A stretch of DNA of 64,000 nt from Deltaproteobacteria bacterium (GTDB lineage Bacteria > Myxococcota > B64-G9), in assembly GCA_016935365.1 (NCBI GenBank), contig JAFGRB010000178.1, positions 389 through 64,388 of the forward strand, written 5' to 3'. A model generated the notes under the pieces. That model saw nothing but the letters and a program-made list of their open reading frames with translations. It was not told the origin of the DNA and searched no databases. How positions within the stretch are numbered: position 1 is the first letter of the stretch; every line of letters starts with the position of its first letter. Position numbers and translations under genes: made by a program. This document shows, piece by piece, positions 43,245 through 60,256 of the stretch.

Positions 43245-45092
43245 CTATCCAGACCGCTCGCTGTCCCGGTGCTGGATGATGACCGGTAGCTCGTTGGCCC
43301 GCAGGCGCTGGCCGAGCTCCTCGGCGATCGCCACGGATCGATGCCGGCCACCGGTGCAGCCGATTCCGACCGTCAAGTAGCTCTTGCCCTCCAGGTCGTA
43401 CAGGGGCCGGAAGGTGGTCAGGAAACACATGACGTGCTCGAGGAAGAGACTCGCATAGGAGTTGCCGAGCACGAAGTCCCGGACCTCCTTGTGGCGCCCG
43501 TCGAGATCCCGCAACTCGGCAGAGAAGTACGGGTTGGGCAGAAACCGCACATCGAAGACGAGATCGACCTGGGGCGGGATGCCGTGCTTGAACCCGAACG
43601 ACACCAGCGCCAGGTTCATTCCCGTGCCCGGCCGGCAGAGGGTGTAGCGCTGCTGGACGAGCTCCCGGAGCTGGTGGGGCGTCAGATCGGTCGTGTCGAT
43701 GACGCGATCGGCACGCTCCCGGAGCCGGGCCAGCAGCTGCCGCTCGTTGCGGATCCCCTCCTCGATGGAGCCCTCCGGGGATAGCGGATGGCGCCTGCGC
43801 GTCTCCGAGTAACGGCGTATCAACACGCGGTCCGCGCAGTCGAGAAACAGGACCTCGACCCGGCCGGCCCCGGCTCGGATCCGGTCGATGTTCTCCTGGA
43901 ACTCGGGCAGAAAGCGGGACTCCCGGGCATCCACCACGAGCGCGATCTGCTCTATCTCACCCGCTTGGCTCGGGAAGAGCTCGACGACCTTGGGCAGCAG
44001 CACGACCGGCAGGTTGTCGATACAGAAAAAGCCGATGTCCTCGAGCGCGTGCACGGCCGTGCTCTTGCCGGAGCCCGACAGGCCGCTCAGCACCACGACG
44101 CGAATGGGATTGCCGGTCGAGTCCAGGGGCAGGTGGTTCATTCCACGATCTCCCCCGGAGTGCCTGGCCGAGCCCTTGTCCTCCAGCGCTTGATCGAGGC
44201 GAGCCCGGAACTCGCGCGCAGAATGGTGCCCTTGCCGCTTGAGCAAGTGATTGCGCGCCGCGACCTCGACCAGCGTGGCGGTGTTGCGGCCGGGAGAGAC
44301 CGGTATCTCCAGATAGGGCAGCTCCACACCGAGCAGGTTGTGGGTCCGATCCTCCACCCCGAGCCGATCCGGGATTTCCTGGGCGTGCCACTCGACGAGC
44401 TCCACGACGAGCTCGACTTTCTTCTGCTCGCGAACGGCGGAAACACCGTAGAGATCCTTGATGTTGATGATGCCCAGACCGCGGATCTCCATGTTGTGCT
44501 GGAGCAATGGCGAGCACCCTCCGAGCAGAGCCAGTGGCGGGCGCTTCCTGAGCATCACGATGTCGTCGGCGACGAGGCGATGGCCGCGCATGACGAGATC
44601 CAGGGCGCATTCGCTCTTGCCGATCCCGCTCTTGCCGAGCATCAGCACGCCGACGCCCAGCACGTCCACCAGCACCGCGTGTACGCCCTTGGACTCCGTC
44701 ATGTGCTCCTGCAGGAACTCGGACAGCCGATCGAAGAGTGTCTCGGCCAGGTGCGAGGAGCTCAGCAGGCAGATGCCGAGACGCTCCGCTTCCTCGTCCA
44801 GCTCCCTTGGGATCGCTTGCCCTGCGGCGACCACGATGCAGGCCGGCCTGTTCATCACCAGGCGCTCGATGACCTGCTCGCGCTCTTCGGGTGTCAGGGC
44901 GTTCAAGTACGCGATCTCGTCATCCAGCATCAGGATGCGATCCGCATCGATCCGCCCGGCCTTGCCCGTCATGGACAGGCCGGGACGCTGGACGCGCGGA
45001 TGATCCACGGAGCGCTCCAGCCCGTTCGAGCCCGAGATCAGGCGCAGGCGCAAATCGAAATCCCGGCTCTCGAGCAACTGGCGGACTTCCAA
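43245..45092 (-). CDS. HprK/P kinase-phosphorylase fused in frame to RapZ (YvcJ) P-loop ATPase
   Basis: N-terminal half carries the HprK Walker A GKSGIGKSE; the C-terminal half starts MNHLPLD...VVVLSGLSGSGKST (RapZ); no intervening stop. Confidence 0.75.
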   Translation of the reverse strand: MEVRQLLESRDFDLRLRLISGSNGLERSVDHPRVQRPGLSMTGKAGRIDADRILMLDDEIAYLNALTPEEREQVIERLVMNRPACIVVAAGQAIPRELDEEAERLGICLLSSSHLAETLFDRLSEFLQEHMTESKGVHAVLVDVLGVGVLMLGKSGIGKSECALDLVMRGHRLVADDIVMLRKRPPLALLGGCSPLLQHNMEIRGLGIINIKDLYGVSAVREQKKVELVVELVEWHAQEIPDRLGVEDRTHNLLGVELPYLEIPVSPGRNTATLVEVAARNHLLKRQGHHSAREFRARLDQALEDKGSARHSGGDRGMNHLPLDSTGNPIRVVVLSGLSGSGKSTAVHALEDIGFFCIDNLPVVLLPKVVELFPSQAGEIEQIALVVDARESRFLPEFQENIDRIRAGAGRVEVLFLDCADRVLIRRYSETRRRHPLSPEGSIEEGIRNERQLLARLRERADRVIDTTDLTPHQLRELVQQRYTLCRPGTGMNLALVSFGFKHGIPPQVDLVFDVRFLPNPYFSAELRDLDGRHKEVRDFVLGNSYASLFLEHVMCFLTTFRPLYDLEGKSYLTVGIGCTGGRHRSVAIAEELGQRLRANELPVIIQHRDSERSG

Positions 45093-45104
45093 GCGAATGC
45101 CCCC

Positions 45105-50245: not shown

Positions 50246-51862
50246 TCAGCCGCCCCGCGCTCTCGCCCGCGCCATGGCGGCGGCCACGAAGGAAGCGAAG
50301 AGCGGGTGGGGTGCGAGCGGTTTGGACTTGAACTCGGGGTGGAACTGGCAGCCGACGAACCAGGGGTGGCCGGGAAGCTCGCACATCTCCACGAGCTGCC
50401 CGTCGGGAGACAGGCCGGAGAAGACGAGGCCGCCTTTCTCGAGCTGCTCGCGGTAGGCGTTGTTGACCTCGAAGCGATGGCGGTGGCGCTCCGAGATCCG
50501 CTCGACCCCGTACGCCGCCCGGGCCCGGGTGCCGGGCTCGAGCAGGCACGGATAGGCGCCCAGCCGCATCGTGCCACCCTTGTCCTCGACTCCCTGCTGG
50601 CTCGCCATCAGCGCGATGACCGGGTGGGCGGTCTCGGGCGCGAACTCGGCCGAGTTGGCTCCCTCGAGCCCGACGACGTTCCGGGCGTACTCGGCGACCA
50701 TCATCTGCATGCCCAGGCAGATGCCGAAGACCGGCACGCCCTGCTCCCGCGCCCAGCGGACGGCCCGGATCTTGCCCTCGCTGCCGCGGTCGCCGAAGCC
50801 GCCCGGCACGAGCACGCCGTCGACGTCGTCGAGATCCTCCAGCTCGCCCCGCTCGAGCTTCTCCGCGCTGACGTACCTGAGATCCACACAGCCGTCGTTG
50901 GCCAGCCCGCCGTGGAGCAGGGCCTCGTGCAAGCTCTTGTACGAGTCGATCAAGTGGACGTACTTGCCCACGACGCCGATGCACGCCGAGTGCCCCGGCT
51001 GGCGCAAGGTCCGGACCACCTTGCTCCAGCGATCCAGGGAGGTGGCCCGGGACCAGATGTTCAGGCTGTCGCAGACCTTGTCGTCCAGCCCCTGCTGGTT
51101 GAGCTGCAAGGGCACGGCGTAGATCGTGTCCACGTCCGGGCAATCGAACACCGTGTCCCGGTCGGTGGAGCAGAAGAGCGCGATCTTGTCCTTGAGATCC
51201 TTGTCCACCGGGCGATCGCAGCGACAGACGATCAGGTCCGGCTGGATGCCGATCTCGCGCAGCGCCTTGACGCTGTGCTGGGTGGGCTTGGTCTTCATCT
51301 CGCCGACCGCCTGGATGAAGGGCACCAGCGTGAGATGGATGTACAGCGTGTGCTCGCGGCCGATGTCGGTGCGAAGCTGGCGAATGCTCTCCAGAAAGGG
51401 AAGGCCCTCGATGTCGCCCACGGTCCCGCCCACCTCGACGATGCACAGGTCCACGTCGCGCGAGGCCTTGTGGATGCGCGCCTTGATCTCGTCGGTGATG
51501 TGCGGGATGACCTGGACGGTCTTGCCCAGGTACTCGCCGCGCCGCTCCTTGGAGATGACCGTGTCGTAGACCTGGCCGGTGGTGAAGTTGTTGGCCTTGC
51601 CCACGGTGATCGAGGTGAAGCGTTCGTAGTGGCCGAGGTCCAGATCGGTTTCGGCCCCGTCGTCGGTGACGAAGACCTCGCCGTGCTGGTACGGGCTCAT
51701 CGTGCCCGGATCGACGTTGAGATAGGGGTCCATCTTGACCAGGGTGATCTTGAGACCGCGGTTCTCCATCAGGGCGCCGATGGATGCGGCCAGCACGCCC
51801 TTGCCGAGGCCGGAGACGACGCCGCCGGTCACGAAGATGTACTTGGTCTGCTTGGATGCCAC
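50246..51862 (-). CDS. pyrG: CTP synthase
   Basis: [17 protein letters not shown]-terminus and C-terminal glutamine amidotransferase domain; GTG start with GGAGG SD. Confidence 0.95.
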
Positions 51863-52089
51863 GGGCAACCTCCGCTCATCGCGTCCAACCCCACCACATC
51901 GATGCGCGTACGCGGTACGGACAGGCCGGCTGGGAAGAAAACGAGTCGTCTCGCGTGCCCACTTCGGCGTGCACCCTTGAGGAAAAACGCAAAGCAGGGT
52001 GTGTGTCAATGCCTTTCTTCGGGCGGCCCGACCGCAGCGATGCCGATTTTCGGTTTTTCTATTGCGGGCAGTCGTAGTATCATCACCCC

Positions 52090-52560
52090 ATGAGAGCATG
52101 GCTGATCTGCATCCTGGCAATCGTATCGATCGGCTGCCGAGAAGAGCCATCGCCTGCCGTGCCACCGGACGGAGGCGACTCCGATCAGGCGATCCGCACG
52201 GCCAAGCTCGTCTTCGTCGAGGGCGAGGTCCGCGTCAAGCGCTCGGGCGAGTCCGAATGGCTCTCGGCCAGCACGGGCATGCAGCTCTCGATCAACGACA
52301 AGGTCCGCACCCAGCGCAGCAGCTTCGCCACCATCGAGTTCGAGCGCGGCGGCGTGCTGCGCATGGAGCCCGAGAGCCTGGTGGCGGTGACCGATCTCTA
52401 CCACGAGCTGCGCAGCCGGATCCGGCGCTCCACCTTCACCATCGAGCAGGGACGGGTGGAGGCGGAGATGGATGCGATCGAGCGGGAGGGCTCCGAGTTC
52501 AAGATCCGCACGCCAACTGCCGAGGCCCGCGTGGTCCGGCGAGAGGTGGTGTTCCAGTGA
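52090..52560 (+). CDS. FecR-domain lipoprotein
   Basis: Lipobox VSIGC; FecR-like beta domain. Confidence 0.55.
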
Positions 52561-53528
52561 CCGCCCGAGGCGCACTCTCGGCGGGCCTCGTGCTCCTGCT
52601 GGCGGCGCCGGCCATGGCCGACGCCCCGGACGGCGGCCCGGCCGGCACCGTCGTCCTGGAGAAGGACCAGATCCTGGAAGATCTCGCCCAGCAGCTCTTC
52701 GAGAGCCGCGAAGCCGCGGACGAGCTGCGCGCCATCAACGGCATCGAGCAGGGCGCCCAGCCCGCGCCCGGCCAGGCACTGAAGCTGCCCGGCCCGGAGA
52801 GACGCCCGGCCGTGAGCGCCTTGCATGTCTGCGAGCAGGCGGTCCGCAAGGCCCGGCAGGCCGATGCGGAGGAGTACGCCATGGAACGGCTCGAGCAAGC
52901 GCTCGCGTCCCTGGCGAAGGCCCGGTCCGCGTGCCAGCGAGCGCAGTATGCCCGCTGCCAGACCCTGGCCGACGAGACCTGGGCCCTGGCCAGGATGGCG
53001 CGCCAGGAAAGCGAGACCAAGCGATCGCGCAGAAATCGCTTTGCGGTCTCGGTCCACGACGGCGACACCCGGGTCGAGGTCAGCGAGGGCGACGGCATCG
53101 AGGTCAGCGCCCAGAAGCGATCCACCACCGTGCCCCGCGGGCACAGCACCCGCGTCAAGGCGGGCAAGGCACCCGACAAGCCGCAACCGCTGCCGGATCC
53201 GCCGGAGCAGGTCCTGCCCTTTCCCGACTCCGTGCTGACGACCCCGTCGATCCACTTCCACTGGCGAGCCGCCGACCGGGCCGCGCGCTATGTCCTGCTC
53301 ATCGCCCGCGATCCGGGCGGCCGCAAGCCCGTGCGCCAGCTGACCACCGGCGAGACGACCTACCTCTTCCGCTCCAGCCTTTCGGACGGAGAGTACTACT
53401 GGTTCCTGCGCTCGGTGGACTCCGAGGGCGCGGTGGGCAGCGCCTCGCCGCCGCGCCGATTCCAGCTCCAGAGCCAGGGGACCGGTGTGACCGTGGAGGA
53501 TGCCGACGTGGTCAAGGACAAGCCATGA
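52556..53528 (+). CDS. Secreted LysM-domain protein with a C-terminal FN3-like domain
   Basis: GTG start overlapping the upstream stop (GTGA); signal peptide; LysM ILEDLAQQLF...LRAINGI. Confidence 0.55.
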
Positions 53529-53920
53529 GCGGCCTGCGCGCACTGGTGTGTGACGATGACACGCCCTTTCGGACCATCGTCCGCGAGCTGCTCGAGCAGC
53601 GCGGCGTCGAGGTGATCGAGGCAGCCGACGGCCACGAGGCGCTGGCGGTCTTCATGAAGCAGGCGATCGATCTCGTGGTGACCGATTTCTTGATGCCCAA
53701 GCTGGACGGCATGCAGGTCATCCGCGACATCCGCATGACCGGCGAGCGAGGCCGGATCCCGATCGTGCTGATGTCGGCCATCTCCAGGGGCAACATCGTG
53801 GGCAAGGAGGAGCTCGGGCCCGACTACTACATGAGCAAACCCTTCAAGCCTAAAAAGATGGCCCGCTTGCTGGACAGGATCTTGGACAACATCGCGCAGG
53901 CGTCCTCGAAGTCGGGATGA
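53525..53920 (+). CDS. Single-domain CheY-like response regulator
   Basis: LVCDDD..D..MPKLDG..K receiver motifs; ATGA overlap upstream. Confidence 0.8.
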   Translation: MSGLRALVCDDDTPFRTIVRELLEQRGVEVIEAADGHEALAVFMKQAIDLVVTDFLMPKLDGMQVIRDIRMTGERGRIPIVLMSAISRGNIVGKEELGPDYYMSKPFKPKKMARLLDRILDNIAQASSKSG

Positions 53921-55689
53921 AGCTCTTTCGCGTGATATCCTTCATGCTCGCCTTCCTGACGGCCGTGCCGGTGGTCGTGGTCGGCATCATCCTGATCGAC
54001 AGCACGGTGGACATCTCCAAGACCTTGACCTGGGAGCTCCAGCAGGAGCGCGCCGACCACGCCAGCCGGCAGATGCGGGCCTTCTTCGAGAACTTCGCCG
54101 ACGACCTCGACCTGCTGGTCTCCAACCTGAGCGTGCGCAGCATGAACCTCCGGGAGCGCCAAGAGCTGCTGTCCTTCATCATGCAGAAGCGGCCCGAGAT
54201 CAACATCATCGCCTTCTACGACGAGCGGTTGCGCCCCTTGCGCAACCTCCTGGCCCTCGACTCCAACCGCATCCTGCCGAGCGAGCTGGCGCTGCACCAG
54301 AAGCGCATCGCGGAGGTGGATCTGGACCAACTCGATCAGTTCGTCTTGGCTTTCTCGGCGCCCTACGCCATCGATCGACAGCCCCGACCCGAGCTGTCCA
54401 TCGAGCGCCGTCAGGAGCGGGTGGTGGCCCTGCTGATGCGCATCTCCGGAGAAGACGCCACCTTCCTGGGCATGGAGCTGCAGCTGACCTCCCTGCAGCA
54501 CATGCTCGATCGCATGCGGATCGGGCTGCGCGGTCAGATGCTCCTGGTCGACGAGCGTTCCCATCCGATCGCCAGGAGCGCTGGCCGGGGCGTGTCCGCC
54601 GAGGACGCCGGGGCGCTGGAAGCCCAGCTCCCGGTCCTGCTGTACGGGCTGGGCGACTCGGCCTCCGCAGCCTCCGTCTCGGGCGCGCGGCCGGCACGGC
54701 TCACGAGCGGCCGGGACGTGCTGGTGGCCTACTCGGCGCTCTCCTGCCCCGACTGGCGCATCCTGTCGGTCGAGCTGCTGGACGACGCCTACCTCGCCTC
54801 TCGCCGGATGACCTGGCACGTGGTCTGGGTGGTCGTCATCAGCCTGGCCGCGGCGCTCGGCCTCGGCGTGCTGTTCGCCTTCGGACTCACCCGGCCGATC
54901 GGAAAGCTCGTGCACGGCTCGCTGGCCATCGCCCGGGGCCGCTTCGGAACCGAGCTCGACATCGAGTCCAGCAACGAGATCGGCGAGCTGGCCCACACCT
55001 TCAACTACATGTCGCGCCAGCTGCTGTACTACGACGACGAGAACAAGAAGCTGGTCGAGTCCTTGCAGCAGGGCTACCTGGAGACCATCCGGGCGCTGGC
55101 CAACTCGATCGACGCCAAGGACCCGTACACCCGCGGCCACTCCGGGCGGGTCACGCGCGTGGCGATCGAGATCGGCAAGGCCCTGGGGCTCCGCGAGGAA
55201 GAGCTGCTGGTGCTGCGCTACGGCGGGATCCTCCACGACATCGGCAAGATCGGCATCCGGGAGGAGATCCTCGGCAAGCGCTCGCAGCTGGATGACGACG
55301 AGCGCACCGTGATGCAGCAGCATCCCGTGATGGGCGAGAAGATCATCGCCCCGATCGACTTCCTGCAACCGGTCCGCCCTCTGGTCCGGCATCACCACGA
55401 GTGGCTGGATGGGAGCGGATACCCGGACGGGCTGGCGGGCGAGGACATCCCCCTCGGGGCCCGGATCCTCGCCGCCGCCGACACCTACGACGCGGTCACC
55501 TCCGAACGCCCCTACCAGAAGGCGGTGGACAACGCCGAGGCCATCCGGATCGTGGAGCGTCTGCGCGGGCGCCAGCTCGACCCGCAGGTCTGCGACGCGC
55601 TCATCGCATACATCCAAAACGAGATCGCCTCCGGCCGCCTGCGCCCCGAGCAGGAGATGGCTGGCTTCGGCGACCCGACCAGAGACTGA
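53917..55689 (+). CDS. Membrane sensor with HAMP and HD-GYP domains (c-di-GMP phosphodiesterase)
   Basis: Two TM helices and periplasmic region, HAMP, HD (HDIGK) ... HHEWLDGSGYP. Confidence 0.8.
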   Translation: MKLFRVISFMLAFLTAVPVVVVGIILIDSTVDISKTLTWELQQERADHASRQMRAFFENFADDLDLLVSNLSVRSMNLRERQELLSFIMQKRPEINIIAFYDERLRPLRNLLALDSNRILPSELALHQKRIAEVDLDQLDQFVLAFSAPYAIDRQPRPELSIERRQERVVALLMRISGEDATFLGMELQLTSLQHMLDRMRIGLRGQMLLVDERSHPIARSAGRGVSAEDAGALEAQLPVLLYGLGDSASAASVSGARPARLTSGRDVLVAYSALSCPDWRILSVELLDDAYLASRRMTWHVVWVVVISLAAALGLGVLFAFGLTRPIGKLVHGSLAIARGRFGTELDIESSNEIGELAHTFNYMSRQLLYYDDENKKLVESLQQGYLETIRALANSIDAKDPYTRGHSGRVTRVAIEIGKALGLREEELLVLRYGGILHDIGKIGIREEILGKRSQLDDDERTVMQQHPVMGEKIIAPIDFLQPVRPLVRHHHEWLDGSGYPDGLAGEDIPLGARILAAADTYDAVTSERPYQKAVDNAEAIRIVERLRGRQLDPQVCDALIAYIQNEIASGRLRPEQEMAGFGDPTRD

Positions 55690-56122
55690 GCCCTAGTGCC
55701 CGAGCCCGCTCGTCACGGGCCAGAGCCAGCCCGCCGAATGGGGCTTCGCGCCGCGCTCTCGGGCGTCTTGGAACCAGGAACTGGGAACCGGGAACCGATT
55801 CGGGTGCAAATCCCAGTTTCCGACCATCGATGGACAACCCGTACAGCAGGCCTTCAATTCAATGGACCGTAGGGCTGGGGTTTATCCCCAGCCGGACGGC
55901 GCCCCGGTCAGCTGCACGGCGGCGGATGAACCGCCGCCCTGATATGGAGGGGGGCGCCTCGCGCCCCCCTCGCCGCCCGGCACAGGTCAGGGCGGCTGTA
56001 CCCCCCGCGGATGGATGGCTTACGCCCTCCATCTGACCTTATGGAGCGCCCCGCTCCATACGGTCTACATTCCTTGCTCAATCGAAGGACCTGAGCAAAC
56101 AGGGATATGCACCCAACCGATT

Positions 56123-57926: not shown

Positions 57927-59873
57927 TCAGAACTCCATCATCAGGCCGAACATGAAGGTCTCGTCGCCCACGTCGAAGTGGCTGCCGCCGAAGCCGTCCA
58001 CCCAGGACAGGGCGAACTCGGCGAAGAGATAGGTGTTGATGATGCCGACGCTCGTCTCGAGGTGCATGGCGGCCTCGTCGTCGAGCCAGTCCAGCAGCAG
58101 CTTCAGGCCGGCCGAGAAGTGCAGGCCAAAGATCCCGCCCTGGGCGCTCGAGGTATTGCCCTGGTCGTCGGTGTACTCGGCCACGTCGCCCACCCCGTCG
58201 AGCACCCACCAGAAGTAGTACGACAGCCCGCCCGTGACGTAGGGCACCAGGGGGATGCTCCAGCGCTCGGCCAGCAGGTCGAAGTGGTAGCCCGCGGTCA
58301 GGCGCACGGGGATGAGGTTGAAGACCGTGGTGTCGCTCGACCGGGCGCCCGACTCGGTCCGGCCCTTGCCCACGTACTGGACGAAGCCGATTGTCCCACC
58401 GGCGGTCACGGTCCCGAAGCCGCGCCAGATCTCGTAGTCCAGGCCCAGCTCGAAGAGCATCTGCGAGCTGCCGCCGAAGATGGTCTGGAAGGGCGTCTCG
58501 TCGTTGCCCTCGTCGAAGCCCTCGCTGTCGACGTTGGGATAATATGGGCCGAAGCGGATCTGGAGCTGGAAAGTCGGCTCGGCGCTCGAGGACGCGCGTA
58601 TGGCGCCCGGCATCGGGGGCTCGTCGGCCCGGGCCGCTGGCGGGAAGGCCAGGCCGGCGAGCGCGAAGATCGCGATCAGCGCGCAGGCCCGCCCGCGGAT
58701 CAGCCGGCCGAGCGCGCGCCGCAGCCCGTATGCGAGCAGCCCGAGCAGGCCGAGGGCCAGGCCGAAGAGGAGCCAGCCGCCCGCGCCCAGCCGGTCGAGC
58801 TCGGCCAGGGCCACGGCCGGTACGAGGCCCGCTCGCGCCAGGCTCCGGCACGGCTCGCAGTGCCGGATGGCCCGGGCCCAGCGGGGCCCGAAGCGGTAGT
58901 AGGAAGCCACCAGGCTGCGGCCGCCCTCGGTCTGCGAGAGGGTCTGGTCCCGAAAGCGCCGGAGCGCGCGCACGCTGAGATCGCCGTAGGAGCCGTAGGC
59001 GGCCGTGGCCACGAAGCAGAACCCGCCCGACTCATCGCCGCCCCCGCCGCGGTAGTACTCCCAGAAGTCGTCGACCGGCAGCGGGGTGGCGATCTTGCTG
59101 GCCGAGGGCTCGCTCTCGTTGTAGGCCTCGTCGTAGGCCGCGACCACGAACTCGTAGGCGGTGCCGATGGTCAGGCCGGAGATCTGGGCGTCGGTCGCCT
59201 CGGGGTCGGCCTTCTCCACGAACTGCCAGGCGTCGTCCGAGGCGTCCTCCTCGCGGTAGTAGACGAGGAAGCCGGCCAGGTCCTCGTCGGCCGGCTTCTC
59301 CCAGTACACCTTGATGTTCATGTCCCCCGGCGCGAGCTCGGTCAGCGTGGGCGCGCCCGGGGCCAGGGTGTCGTAGCGCAGCTTCGCCTTGGCGTAATAT
59401 GTATAGTTGTCGGTATTGTAAGGATAAACAATCTGGTCGATCTCGAACTCCCAGCGCGCACAGAAGTAGTAGTCCTGCTGGTTGCCGGCGGCGCAGTCGA
59501 GGCCCGCGATGTCGCTGAGGAAGAAATCCTCTCCGCTCTCGGGGTACTGGCCCTGGCTGAAGCTCAGCCCGATCTCGAGGTCCTCGCCGTTCTCCTCGGT
59601 CTGGCCGATCTCGATCGAGACCGAGGAACAGGTCTCCGAGGTGGACAGGAAGACGTCCGCGCTCTGGGTCTCGACCCAGGTGACCGACTGGCCCTCGGCC
59701 AGGCTGAAGTCGAAGCCGATGGCGAGCTCGTCCGGCGCGGCGCAGTCCGCGATGTTGATGTAGGCCCGGCCCGGGCTGGTCAGATTGCCTTCCATCTCGA
59801 AGGTGTAGTTGGTGGCACGGGCGGGCAGGCCCGCGAGCAGCAGGACCGGGAGCAGGATGCGTGTGGCTCTCAT
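57927..59873 (-). CDS. Secreted modular protein: FN3 domain, conserved GGFCFVATAAYGS...LRRFRD motif, internal hydrophobic/signal-like segment, C-terminal OM beta-barrel
   Basis: Signal peptide MRATRILLPVLLLAGLPARA; ends in the ...FGLMMEF terminal Phe typical of OMPs. Confidence 0.55.
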   Translation of the reverse strand: MRATRILLPVLLLAGLPARATNYTFEMEGNLTSPGRAYINIADCAAPDELAIGFDFSLAEGQSVTWVETQSADVFLSTSETCSSVSIEIGQTEENGEDLEIGLSFSQGQYPESGEDFFLSDIAGLDCAAGNQQDYYFCARWEFEIDQIVYPYNTDNYTYYAKAKLRYDTLAPGAPTLTELAPGDMNIKVYWEKPADEDLAGFLVYYREEDASDDAWQFVEKADPEATDAQISGLTIGTAYEFVVAAYDEAYNESEPSASKIATPLPVDDFWEYYRGGGGDESGGFCFVATAAYGSYGDLSVRALRRFRDQTLSQTEGGRSLVASYYRFGPRWARAIRHCEPCRSLARAGLVPAVALAELDRLGAGGWLLFGLALGLLGLLAYGLRRALGRLIRGRACALIAIFALAGLAFPPAARADEPPMPGAIRASSSAEPTFQLQIRFGPYYPNVDSEGFDEGNDETPFQTIFGGSSQMLFELGLDYEIWRGFGTVTAGGTIGFVQYVGKGRTESGARSSDTTVFNLIPVRLTAGYHFDLLAERWSIPLVPYVTGGLSYYFWWVLDGVGDVAEYTDDQGNTSSAQGGIFGLHFSAGLKLLLDWLDDEAAMHLETSVGIINTYLFAEFALSWVDGFGGSHFDVGDETFMFGLMMEF

Positions 59874-60256
59874 TCTTGCAACGCCTCTCTCTCTTCTGGC
59901 ATTGACTAGCACGCCAGGAGGCGAATACGCAAGCTTTGTGCCAGCCTGCCGCCGCCCGCGATCGACAAAAAGAGCCACACAATCAAATTGTTCCGCGCAA
60001 GAGAGCACGGCCCTGAAAGCGGCCGGCTTGCATTTCTGTCACAAGCTAGCCCCCCGCGCGCAGCCCGGCTGCCAAAATGTCAGGAGCGCTCCGCGCCGCC
60101 GGCGCAGCGCATCGCCTCGCATCGCGGATCGGCCCGTCTGGCAAGGAGGCGACGAGTGCCGCAGCGGAGCAACCTTCCGGTTGTGAGCATCGGCATGATG
60201 GAGCCGACGCGGTCCAGACGGGCCGAGGCGCGATGCGCCCGAGACGCCAGAAGCGT

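Follow-up and report, generated by a model that had tools for sequence, protein, structure and literature searches.

Which messenger nucleotide does a four-gene operon of an uncultured member of the Myxococcota act on, and what do its three smaller genes contribute to the enzyme encoded by the fourth? The operon occupies positions 52090-55689 of the + strand of a 64,000-nucleotide (nt) stretch of contig JAFGRB010000178.1 (GenBank assembly GCA_016935365.1, Deltaproteobacteria bacterium), which was analysed at its full length and is called the 64 kb window below. On this strand, g1 (52090-52560, 156 amino acids, aa) encodes a FecR-domain lipoprotein, g2 (52557-53528, 323 aa, GTG start) a secreted protein, g3 (53525-53920, 131 aa) a single-domain response regulator, or receiver, and g4 (53917-55689, 590 aa) a predicted phosphodiesterase of the PmxA type, with the layout TM-dCache-TM-HAMP-HD-GYP (TM, transmembrane helix; dCache, double-Cache domain). 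The initial annotation described these four open reading frames as tightly coupled through the overlaps GTGA (g1/g2), ATGA (g2/g3) and ATGA (g3/g4), and as encoding two exported envelope proteins, a stand-alone receiver and a membrane HAMP-HD-GYP enzyme. Coordinates, junctions and these domain calls were all confirmed by our analysis, which departs from the further proposal that the genes form an uncharacterised module leading from the envelope to cyclic di-GMP (c-di-GMP). We estimate at about 60% the probability that the locus represents a pmxA operon that has gained one gene, the receiver, in an uncultured Myxococcota lineage, and that provides two putative inputs to the enzyme. PmxA is one of the few known phosphodiesterases dedicated to cyclic GMP-AMP (cGAMP), a messenger whose signalling roles outside phage defence are poorly understood.

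Homology with the pmxA operon of Myxococcus xanthus

The products of g1, g2 and g4 are homologous to M. xanthus MXAN_2063, MXAN_2062 and PmxA (MXAN_2061), respectively, and the receiver is the one extra gene. BLASTP searches against M. xanthus returned 30% identity for g1 (E = 3e-15), 31% for g2 (E = 1e-17) and 39% for g4 (E = 4e-119), and the full-length relatives of g4 in cultured Myxococcaceae are 39-41% identical over 95% of its length. The M. xanthus homologue of g4 (P0102) carries the H424D pair, G485YP, R515 and Q518, which are the residues published for PmxA, and its gene is immediately preceded by a FecR gene and one for a 298-aa protein, whose products are homologous to those of g1 and g2. 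MXAN_2063 has been described as a FecR-domain lipoprotein and MXAN_2062 as a protein composed of a signal peptide, LysM and FN3, and co-transcription of MXAN_2063, MXAN_2062 and pmxA has been demonstrated by reverse transcription PCR (Kuzmich et al., PMC8844925). Our literature search found no mention of MXAN_2063 or MXAN_2062 beyond this paper. Since three of the four genes are homologues of an operon established in this way, the module cannot be called uncharacterised: the three-gene core was already known, and what is new here is the receiver gene between gene 2 and the enzyme, together with the modular co-variation described below. The assignment also corrects the default product names at NCBI, which are 'HD domain-containing protein', 'DUF4398 domain-containing protein' and 'response regulator'.

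Of the known systems compared here, the M. xanthus operon comes nearest. The two operons share a FecR lipoprotein, a LysM-FN3 protein and a dCache-HAMP-HD-GYP enzyme in the same order, a 4-nt overlap of gene 1 with gene 2, an RxxQ motif in the enzyme and a tyrosine at the position of E185 of the HD-GYP protein PmGH. They differ in that the identities reach only 30, 31 and 39%, that the genomic context is another one, and that here the receiver gene, an insertion particular to this clade when compared with M. xanthus, stands between gene 2 and the enzyme. The MrpC-dependent internal promoter of M. xanthus is likewise not to be assumed in the operon of the window.

Catalytic core and predicted substrate of the enzyme

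The g4 product consists of TM1 (residues 6-28), the dCache domain (29-292), TM2 (302-324), a HAMP domain (324-369; Pfam E = 6e-12) and an HD-GYP domain (393-558; HD_5/HD, E = 2e-40, with HD_5 at E = 1.9e-40). A Foldseek search with the AlphaFold2 (AF2) model matched the HD-GYP domain of PA4781 with a target TM-score (TMt) of 0.77. We mapped the active-site residues by alignment to PmGH (4MCW) and judged their invariance in an alignment of relatives, A3. The metal ligands H408, H440, D441, H469, H493, H494 and D522 are intact and invariant, and they match PmGH residues H189, H221/D222, H250, H276/H277 and D305, so that the integrity of the metal site, on which the initial annotation had made its reading depend, is borne out. 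The catalytic core H440-D441, H469, H493-H494 and G501-Y502-P503 is encoded at 55234-55425 (+), the codons for H408 and D522 lying a short way beyond these limits, and the tyrosine of the GYP motif matches PmGH Y285. The third-metal ligand of PmGH, E185, is replaced by Tyr404 in g4, and a tyrosine occupies this position in 107 of 120 relatives. This replacement places g4 in the binuclear rather than the trinuclear HD-GYP subgroup, and an enzyme of the binuclear type is expected to stop at the linear dinucleotide. With all binuclear ligands and the GYP motif present, g4 is predicted to be catalytically competent.

The substrate-selectivity motif, R531-P-Y-Q534, is encoded at 55507-55518 (+). 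It aligns with R314-x-x-K317 of PmGH, and R531 and Q534 are equivalent to R515 and Q518 of PmxA. RxYQ is present in each of the 34 parsable members of the g4 clade (33 RPYQ, 1 RSYQ) and in 76 of 83 PmxA-like proteins. As a background we used 52 unrelated HD-GYP loci from a metagenome scan with the g4 alignment, in which RxxR occurs 47 times, RxxR/K 49 times and RxxQ only twice. Of the 80 loci returned by the scan, 75 were unrelated HD-GYP genes, because HDIGKIGI, one of its two patterns, is generic to HD-GYP domains. Three loci of the family (L023, L024 and L025) were obtained from the same scan.

The choice of substrate can be judged against the work on M. xanthus pmxA (PMC8844925; PMC4877007; bioRxiv 10.1101/600031). 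The activity initially demonstrated for PmxA was the cleavage of c-di-GMP in vitro, its cytoplasmic fragment yielding pGpG. According to later work, the enzyme strongly prefers 3',3'-cGAMP in vitro, and deletion of pmxA raises cGAMP in vivo while leaving c-di-GMP levels unchanged. The preference is set by Gln518 of the RxxQ motif, which in c-di-GMP enzymes reads RxxK/R, and it is reversed by the substitution Q518R; cGAMP-over-c-di-GMP hydrolysis has been shown only for PmxA and a few other RxxQ/N enzymes. Membership of the PmxA family, the binuclear metal site and the RxxQ motif together make 3',3'-cGAMP the most likely main substrate of g4, with c-di-GMP as a poorer one.

The reading of the initial annotation, in which g4 would be a c-di-GMP phosphodiesterase in vivo and the operon an envelope-to-c-di-GMP module, has in its favour that HD-GYP domains in general are a family of c-di-GMP hydrolases, that the cytoplasmic fragment of PmxA does make pGpG from c-di-GMP, and that the Foldseek matches of g4 include HD-GYP structures with bound c-di-GMP. 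We nevertheless regard it as improbable, and c-di-GMP as probably the wrong messenger: in g4 the guanine-reading RxxK/R is replaced by RxxQ, whose glutamine is kept throughout the clade, the Q518R exchange restores c-di-GMP activity to PmxA, and it is cGAMP, not c-di-GMP, that responds to the loss of pmxA.

Conservation and modular co-variation of the operon

A genome scan with the g2 alignment identified 13 loci in metagenome-assembled genomes (MAGs) of Myxococcota, all with the order g1-g2-g3-g4 and with identities to the operon of the window of 48-66% (g1), 42-58% (g2), 59-66% (g3) and 50-66% (g4). Two more four-gene loci, L017 and L023, came from other searches, with about 40% identity for g1 and g2 and 55% for g3. 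The gene order and the tight junctions, with intervals of -4 to +46 nt at the four-gene loci, thus recur at 15 further loci, far beyond chance, which provides the co-conservation that the initial annotation had proposed to look for. The 4-nt overlap between g1 and g2 is found in 15 of the 19 loci in which it could be measured, M. xanthus included, and two more have a 1-nt overlap.

Across the family, three architectures can be distinguished. All four genes are present at 16 loci. At five loci, g1 and g2 precede a dCache-containing enzyme and the receiver is lacking: the M. xanthus locus lies between rimP-nusA and a protein kinase gene, L018 adjoins a cold-shock gene, L019 adjoins pyrG and has no rpsI-rplM downstream, and the remaining two are a JGI (Joint Genome Institute) contig resembling M. 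xanthus and L024. The core of g1, g2 and enzyme is therefore kept in at least three different genomic contexts, and these receiver-less loci, by virtue of their other surroundings, constitute independent evidence for the association of the three genes.

The third architecture, found at three loci, consists of the receiver and a short enzyme without the dCache domain, and lacks both g1 and g2. The short relatives of g4 comprise 328-352 aa and are 66-68% identical to it over HAMP-HD-GYP. The dCache domain has been deleted in frame, with two different deletion boundaries, and both TM helices, HAMP, HD-GYP and RxYQ are retained. One of these loci (L020) has the same lptB-lpxL … rpsI-rplM synteny as the window, the second (L021/L022) adjoins rpsI-rplM, and the third (L025) follows moaD/E-like genes in surroundings unrelated to those of the others. 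In all three the receiver gene is immediately upstream of the enzyme, so that receiver and enzyme are adjacent in 19 loci (16 four-gene and 3 short-form), with gaps of -4 to +58 nt. No locus of the family is discordant, in the sense of having g1 and g2 without dCache or dCache without g1 and g2. A neighbour-joining tree of the cytoplasmic part, which carries no support values and is suggestive only, puts the receiver-bearing enzymes into one clade apart from PmxA proper and the two short forms near the base of this clade as separate lineages.

This co-variation suggests two separable input modules on one enzyme, one periplasmic and one cytoplasmic. Since g1 and g2 are present and absent together with the dCache domain, they most likely work with it, and since the receiver persists at loci that have lost the periplasmic input, the pattern points to control of cGAMP degradation by a phosphorelay.

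A more distant dCache-HAMP-HD-GYP gene was noted in L026 (3277-5202). Its product is 31-40% identical, comes from an organism of 61% G+C and contains RPYQ, and no FecR or LysM/FN3 genes lie upstream. On account of this identity and G+C content we hold it outside the family rather than counting it as discordant; its RPYQ means that the cGAMP signature also occurs on this architecture beyond the pmxA-operon family.

The receiver

The g3 product matches the Pfam Response_reg family with 76 bits (E = 3e-21). Residues D10, D11, D54, S84 and K105 are invariant in orthologues and Y102 nearly so. With acidic pocket, phospho-acceptor aspartate and Ser/Lys switch residues in place, it is predicted to be a phosphorylatable CheY-like receiver. 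Orthologues are 54-70% identical, the next homologues drop to 39%, and the M. xanthus, L018 and L019 loci have no orthologue. A homologue search returned as closest relatives only stand-alone receivers of about 107-152 aa, none of them fused to HD-GYP, and thus gave no support to a derivation of g3 from a fused enzyme with receiver and HD-GYP domains (REC-HD-GYP). Recent horizontal acquisition, which a local dip in G+C to 0.62 had suggested, was also rejected: the G+C content at third codon positions (GC3) of g3 is 0.90, like that of its neighbours, and the range of 0.88-0.93 across g1-g4 corresponds to native codon usage.

The receiver might be a passenger, that is, a response regulator belonging to a different pathway, or a phosphate sink, which shares the transcript without controlling the phosphodiesterase. 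The M. xanthus operon works without a receiver, REC-HD-GYP fusions are missing among the close relatives of g3, and no kinase is encoded in cis. Against such a role stand the position of the gene directly upstream of the enzyme in the 19 loci mentioned, which include the short-form loci and one other context, and the conservation of g3, which equals or exceeds that of the other three operon products at most loci. We therefore consider it unlikely that the receiver merely travels with the enzyme.

In agreement with the initial annotation, no histidine kinase is encoded in the operon, and no H-box was found in the whole 64 kb window, so that a kinase partner in cis was rejected as a candidate for this locus. 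In L021 (8347-10263, also at the start of L022), a gene for a membrane histidine kinase with GAF, HisKA and HATPase domains lies just beyond rplM. It is a candidate partner of the receiver and short HD-GYP enzyme of that lineage only, as a kinase of this type is absent from the window and from all other loci of the family.

The periplasmic proteins and the dCache domain

The g1 product scores 30.7 bits with the Pfam FecR family (cut-off 24), in a match that spans only positions 1-74 of the 97 of the profile, and has weak NCBIfam matches to the Leptospira FecR lipoproteins Lsa33 and LipL45. Its lipobox cysteine, Cys16, is invariant in orthologues. The protein is not an anti-sigma regulator of cell-surface signalling of the FecR type: apart from the FecR domain it has none of the features of such regulators and no cytoplasmic part, its gene lies between pyrG and g2, and no gene for a sigma factor or a TonB-dependent transducer is adjacent. 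The C-terminus of g1, R-E-V/I-x-F-Q followed by the stop codon (52539-52560, and the equivalent site in L001-L018), is invariant from this MAG to M. xanthus despite an overall identity of 30%, and ends in the 4-nt overlap with g2; the invariance could reflect a constraint on the protein or one on the overlapping start codon and ribosome-binding site.

The g2 product begins with a signal peptide, and its AF2 model, a confident one with a mean predicted local distance difference test (pLDDT) value of 86.4, shows a LysM-like unit (30-77), a three-helix DUF4398 region (82-158), a small β domain (161-200) and an FN3 domain (217-304). The LysM-like unit has the β-α-α-β order, with strands at 31-33 and 74-76 and helices at 40-48 and 53-60. 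In Pfam, LysM has no match in g2 itself at E<=1 and matches 8 of 17 orthologues, at best with E = 1.2e-4, whereas DUF4398 is matched by 15 of the 17. The FN3 domain was assigned by Foldseek with a probability of 1.0 to many FN3 structures (TMt up to 0.73), and a search with the profile of this region brings up thousands of repeat proteins. A split FecR domain, in which the small β domain of g2 would complete that of g1, was rejected, as a profile-profile comparison of the two proteins gave a probability of 0.6%.

In g4, two hydrophobic segments flank a periplasmic domain of about 265 residues, which the AF2 model (pLDDT 82.5) depicts as a long N-terminal helix and two PAS-like α/β modules between the TM helices. 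The Pfam family dCache_1 (PF02743) scores 21 bits here, below its cut-off of 45, and most of the g4 homologues listed carry a precomputed match to it. Foldseek relates the domain to the ligand-binding domains of TlpC, PscC, Mlp24 and others (TMt 0.55-0.71), and a WalK-YycH model is among the fold matches. We conclude that it is a double-Cache domain and that this domain, rather than FecR or LysM alone, is the envelope-facing portion of the enzyme. The domain names of the initial annotation thus hold for FecR, FN3, receiver, HAMP and HD-GYP, while its LysM lacks a Pfam match in g2 itself, and the DUF4398 region, the small β domain of g2 and the dCache domain of g4 had been overlooked.

The remaining alternative, in which g1 and g2 would be envelope proteins with a task of their own (a peptidoglycan-associated structure or adhesion) that are co-transcribed but take no part in sensing, could appeal to homologues whose function is given as unknown even in M. 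xanthus, to the internal promoters of pmxA itself, which partly uncouple its expression from that of MXAN_2063 and MXAN_2062 (PMC8844925), and to the description of Lsa33 and LipL45 as surface proteins, but it is the least probable of those considered in view of the presence of g1 and g2 with dCache in 21 loci and their absence with it in three without exception, the retention of the core in several genomic contexts, and the adjacency of LysM/FecR proteins elsewhere to periplasmic CHASE2 sensor kinases (PMC5192318).

A model with two inputs

In the model that we favour, the pmxA operon enlarged by a receiver, g4 would be an inner-membrane dCache-HAMP-HD-GYP enzyme of the dimeric type that cuts 3',3'-cGAMP to the linear dinucleotide. 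The first, periplasmic module would consist of g1, g2 and the dCache domain. The overlap of stop and start codons would keep the amounts of g1 and g2 in a constant ratio, and the conservation of this translational coupling suggests a stoichiometric pair. Both may be accessory sensors that sit on the dCache domain or act together with it, and the LysM part of g2 may convey the condition of the peptidoglycan or envelope, such as during osmotic stress; such a link to peptidoglycan would fit the osmotic-stress phenotype reported for a pmxA mutant in the M. xanthus literature. The signal would then run through TM2 and HAMP to HD-GYP. In the second, cytoplasmic module, g3 would be phosphorylated by a kinase encoded elsewhere and could act in trans on HAMP-HD-GYP, like the fused receiver of RpfG-type enzymes. 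Contact of g1 and g2 with the dCache domain, binding of peptidoglycan, phosphorylation of g3 and its action on g4 are steps that we infer from the co-variation and the domain content. A stricter version, in which the three architectures amount to a natural domain swap, with g1 and g2 as obligatory co-sensors of dCache and at the same time the stand-alone receiver as a regulator of HD-GYP in trans, is put forward tentatively, and we doubt that it holds in full.

Several observations weigh against the proposed model. At most of the four-gene loci the neighbourhood is conserved as well, with lpxL-pyrG before the operon and rpsI-rplM after it, and because of this wider synteny the recurring four-gene order counts only in part as independent evidence. 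Joint loss of g1, g2 and dCache was observed at no more than three short-form loci, which represent two or three lineages. The LysM part of g2 is below every Pfam threshold, which makes peptidoglycan binding uncertain, and since the relatives of g3 are all stand-alone proteins, there is no fusion to argue for contact between g3 and g4. The choice of substrate depends on one signature residue and 39% identity to PmxA, which itself hydrolyses c-di-GMP in vitro, only more slowly. Finally, neither a GGDEF motif, as expected of a cGAMP synthase (Hypr GGDEF), nor a kinase was found within the 64 kb window.

Parts of the model have counterparts elsewhere. RpfG-type REC-HD-GYP enzymes, among them Vibrio cholerae VCA0210 (V-cGAP2), which also cuts cGAMP, likewise combine a receiver with an HD-GYP output, a pairing through which a phosphorelay could control the hydrolysis of cyclic dinucleotides. 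In the operon of the window, by contrast, the receiver is a separate polypeptide and the enzyme has a membrane dCache-HAMP part of its own, so that regulation would have to occur in trans. In the YfiBNR (TpbB) and WalK-YycHI systems, accessory lipoproteins or peptidoglycan-linked proteins and periplasmic partners determine how active an inner-membrane PAS/Cache-HAMP enzyme is. YfiB is an OmpA/Pal-like lipoprotein, and the enzyme YfiN (PAS-HAMP-GGDEF) produces c-di-GMP, whereas WalK is a kinase. No component of these systems is homologous to one of the operon, whose four products contain no OmpA, YfiR or GGDEF domain in Pfam and NCBIfam scans, and the analogy is one of logic only.

A looser likeness, at the level of domains, is offered by the Burkholderia 'BiofilmReg' operon (PMC5192318), which encodes a response regulator, a protein with LysM and FecR (COG4254) and a CHASE2 histidine kinase. 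There too, overlapping genes place LysM/FecR periplasmic modules beside a response regulator and a membrane sensor whose periplasmic domain is large. 'BiofilmReg' combines LysM and FecR in a single polypeptide and has a CHASE2 kinase as sensor and a DNA-binding regulator of the CreB/OmpR type, whereas the operon of the window has two proteins, a dCache sensor and an HD-GYP output. The comparison shows that LysM/FecR proteins recur beside membrane sensors with large periplasmic domains.

The modular co-variation provides a first testable hypothesis for the two partner proteins of the pmxA operon, to which a receiver was added in one uncultured Myxococcota clade and retained when the periplasmic input was lost. 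If the stricter version of the model is correct, MXAN_2063 and MXAN_2062 would receive their first functional assignment, which could be extended to LysM/FecR proteins beside other periplasmic sensors, and a two-component phosphorelay would for the first time be tied directly to the turnover of 3',3'-cGAMP.

Genomic setting of the operon

The operon is bounded upstream by pyrG (50246-51868, - strand; CTP_synth_N and GATase in Pfam), which is transcribed divergently. The intergenic region between pyrG and the start of g1 at 52090 (51869-52089) is the presumed promoter region; as no sigma-70 consensus was found, the promoter is placed there by its position only. Downstream, the convergent genes rpsI-rplM (- strand, identified by Pfam) bound the operon. 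The spacer between g4 and rpsI (55690-56122) contains G+C-rich hairpins and is the probable end of the transcript, with inverted repeats at 55947-55971 (11 nt, perfect stem) and 56035-56065. No convincing T-tract terminator was seen in it, and an Rfam scan returned chance miRNA matches only and no RNA element, with none in the spacer. Its length is 433 bp in the window and 22 bp in L017.

The wider window is a housekeeping region with ptsI-ptsH, hprK/rapZ, hpf, rpoN, lptB, lpxL and pyrG. Inside its rpoN-hpf-...-ptsH-ptsI cluster, at 43245-45104 (- strand), a single uninterrupted frame of 619 codons appears to encode an HprK-RapZ fusion, with Hpr_kinase_N and _C at residues 7-302, RapZ-like_N and PapZ_C at residues 334-615 and no stop between the halves. 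A 693-aa protein with an FN3 domain is encoded at 57927-60008 (- strand), between rplM/truA and asd; L017 carries a similar fn3 gene at the equivalent place, and the gene of the window is therefore syntenic.

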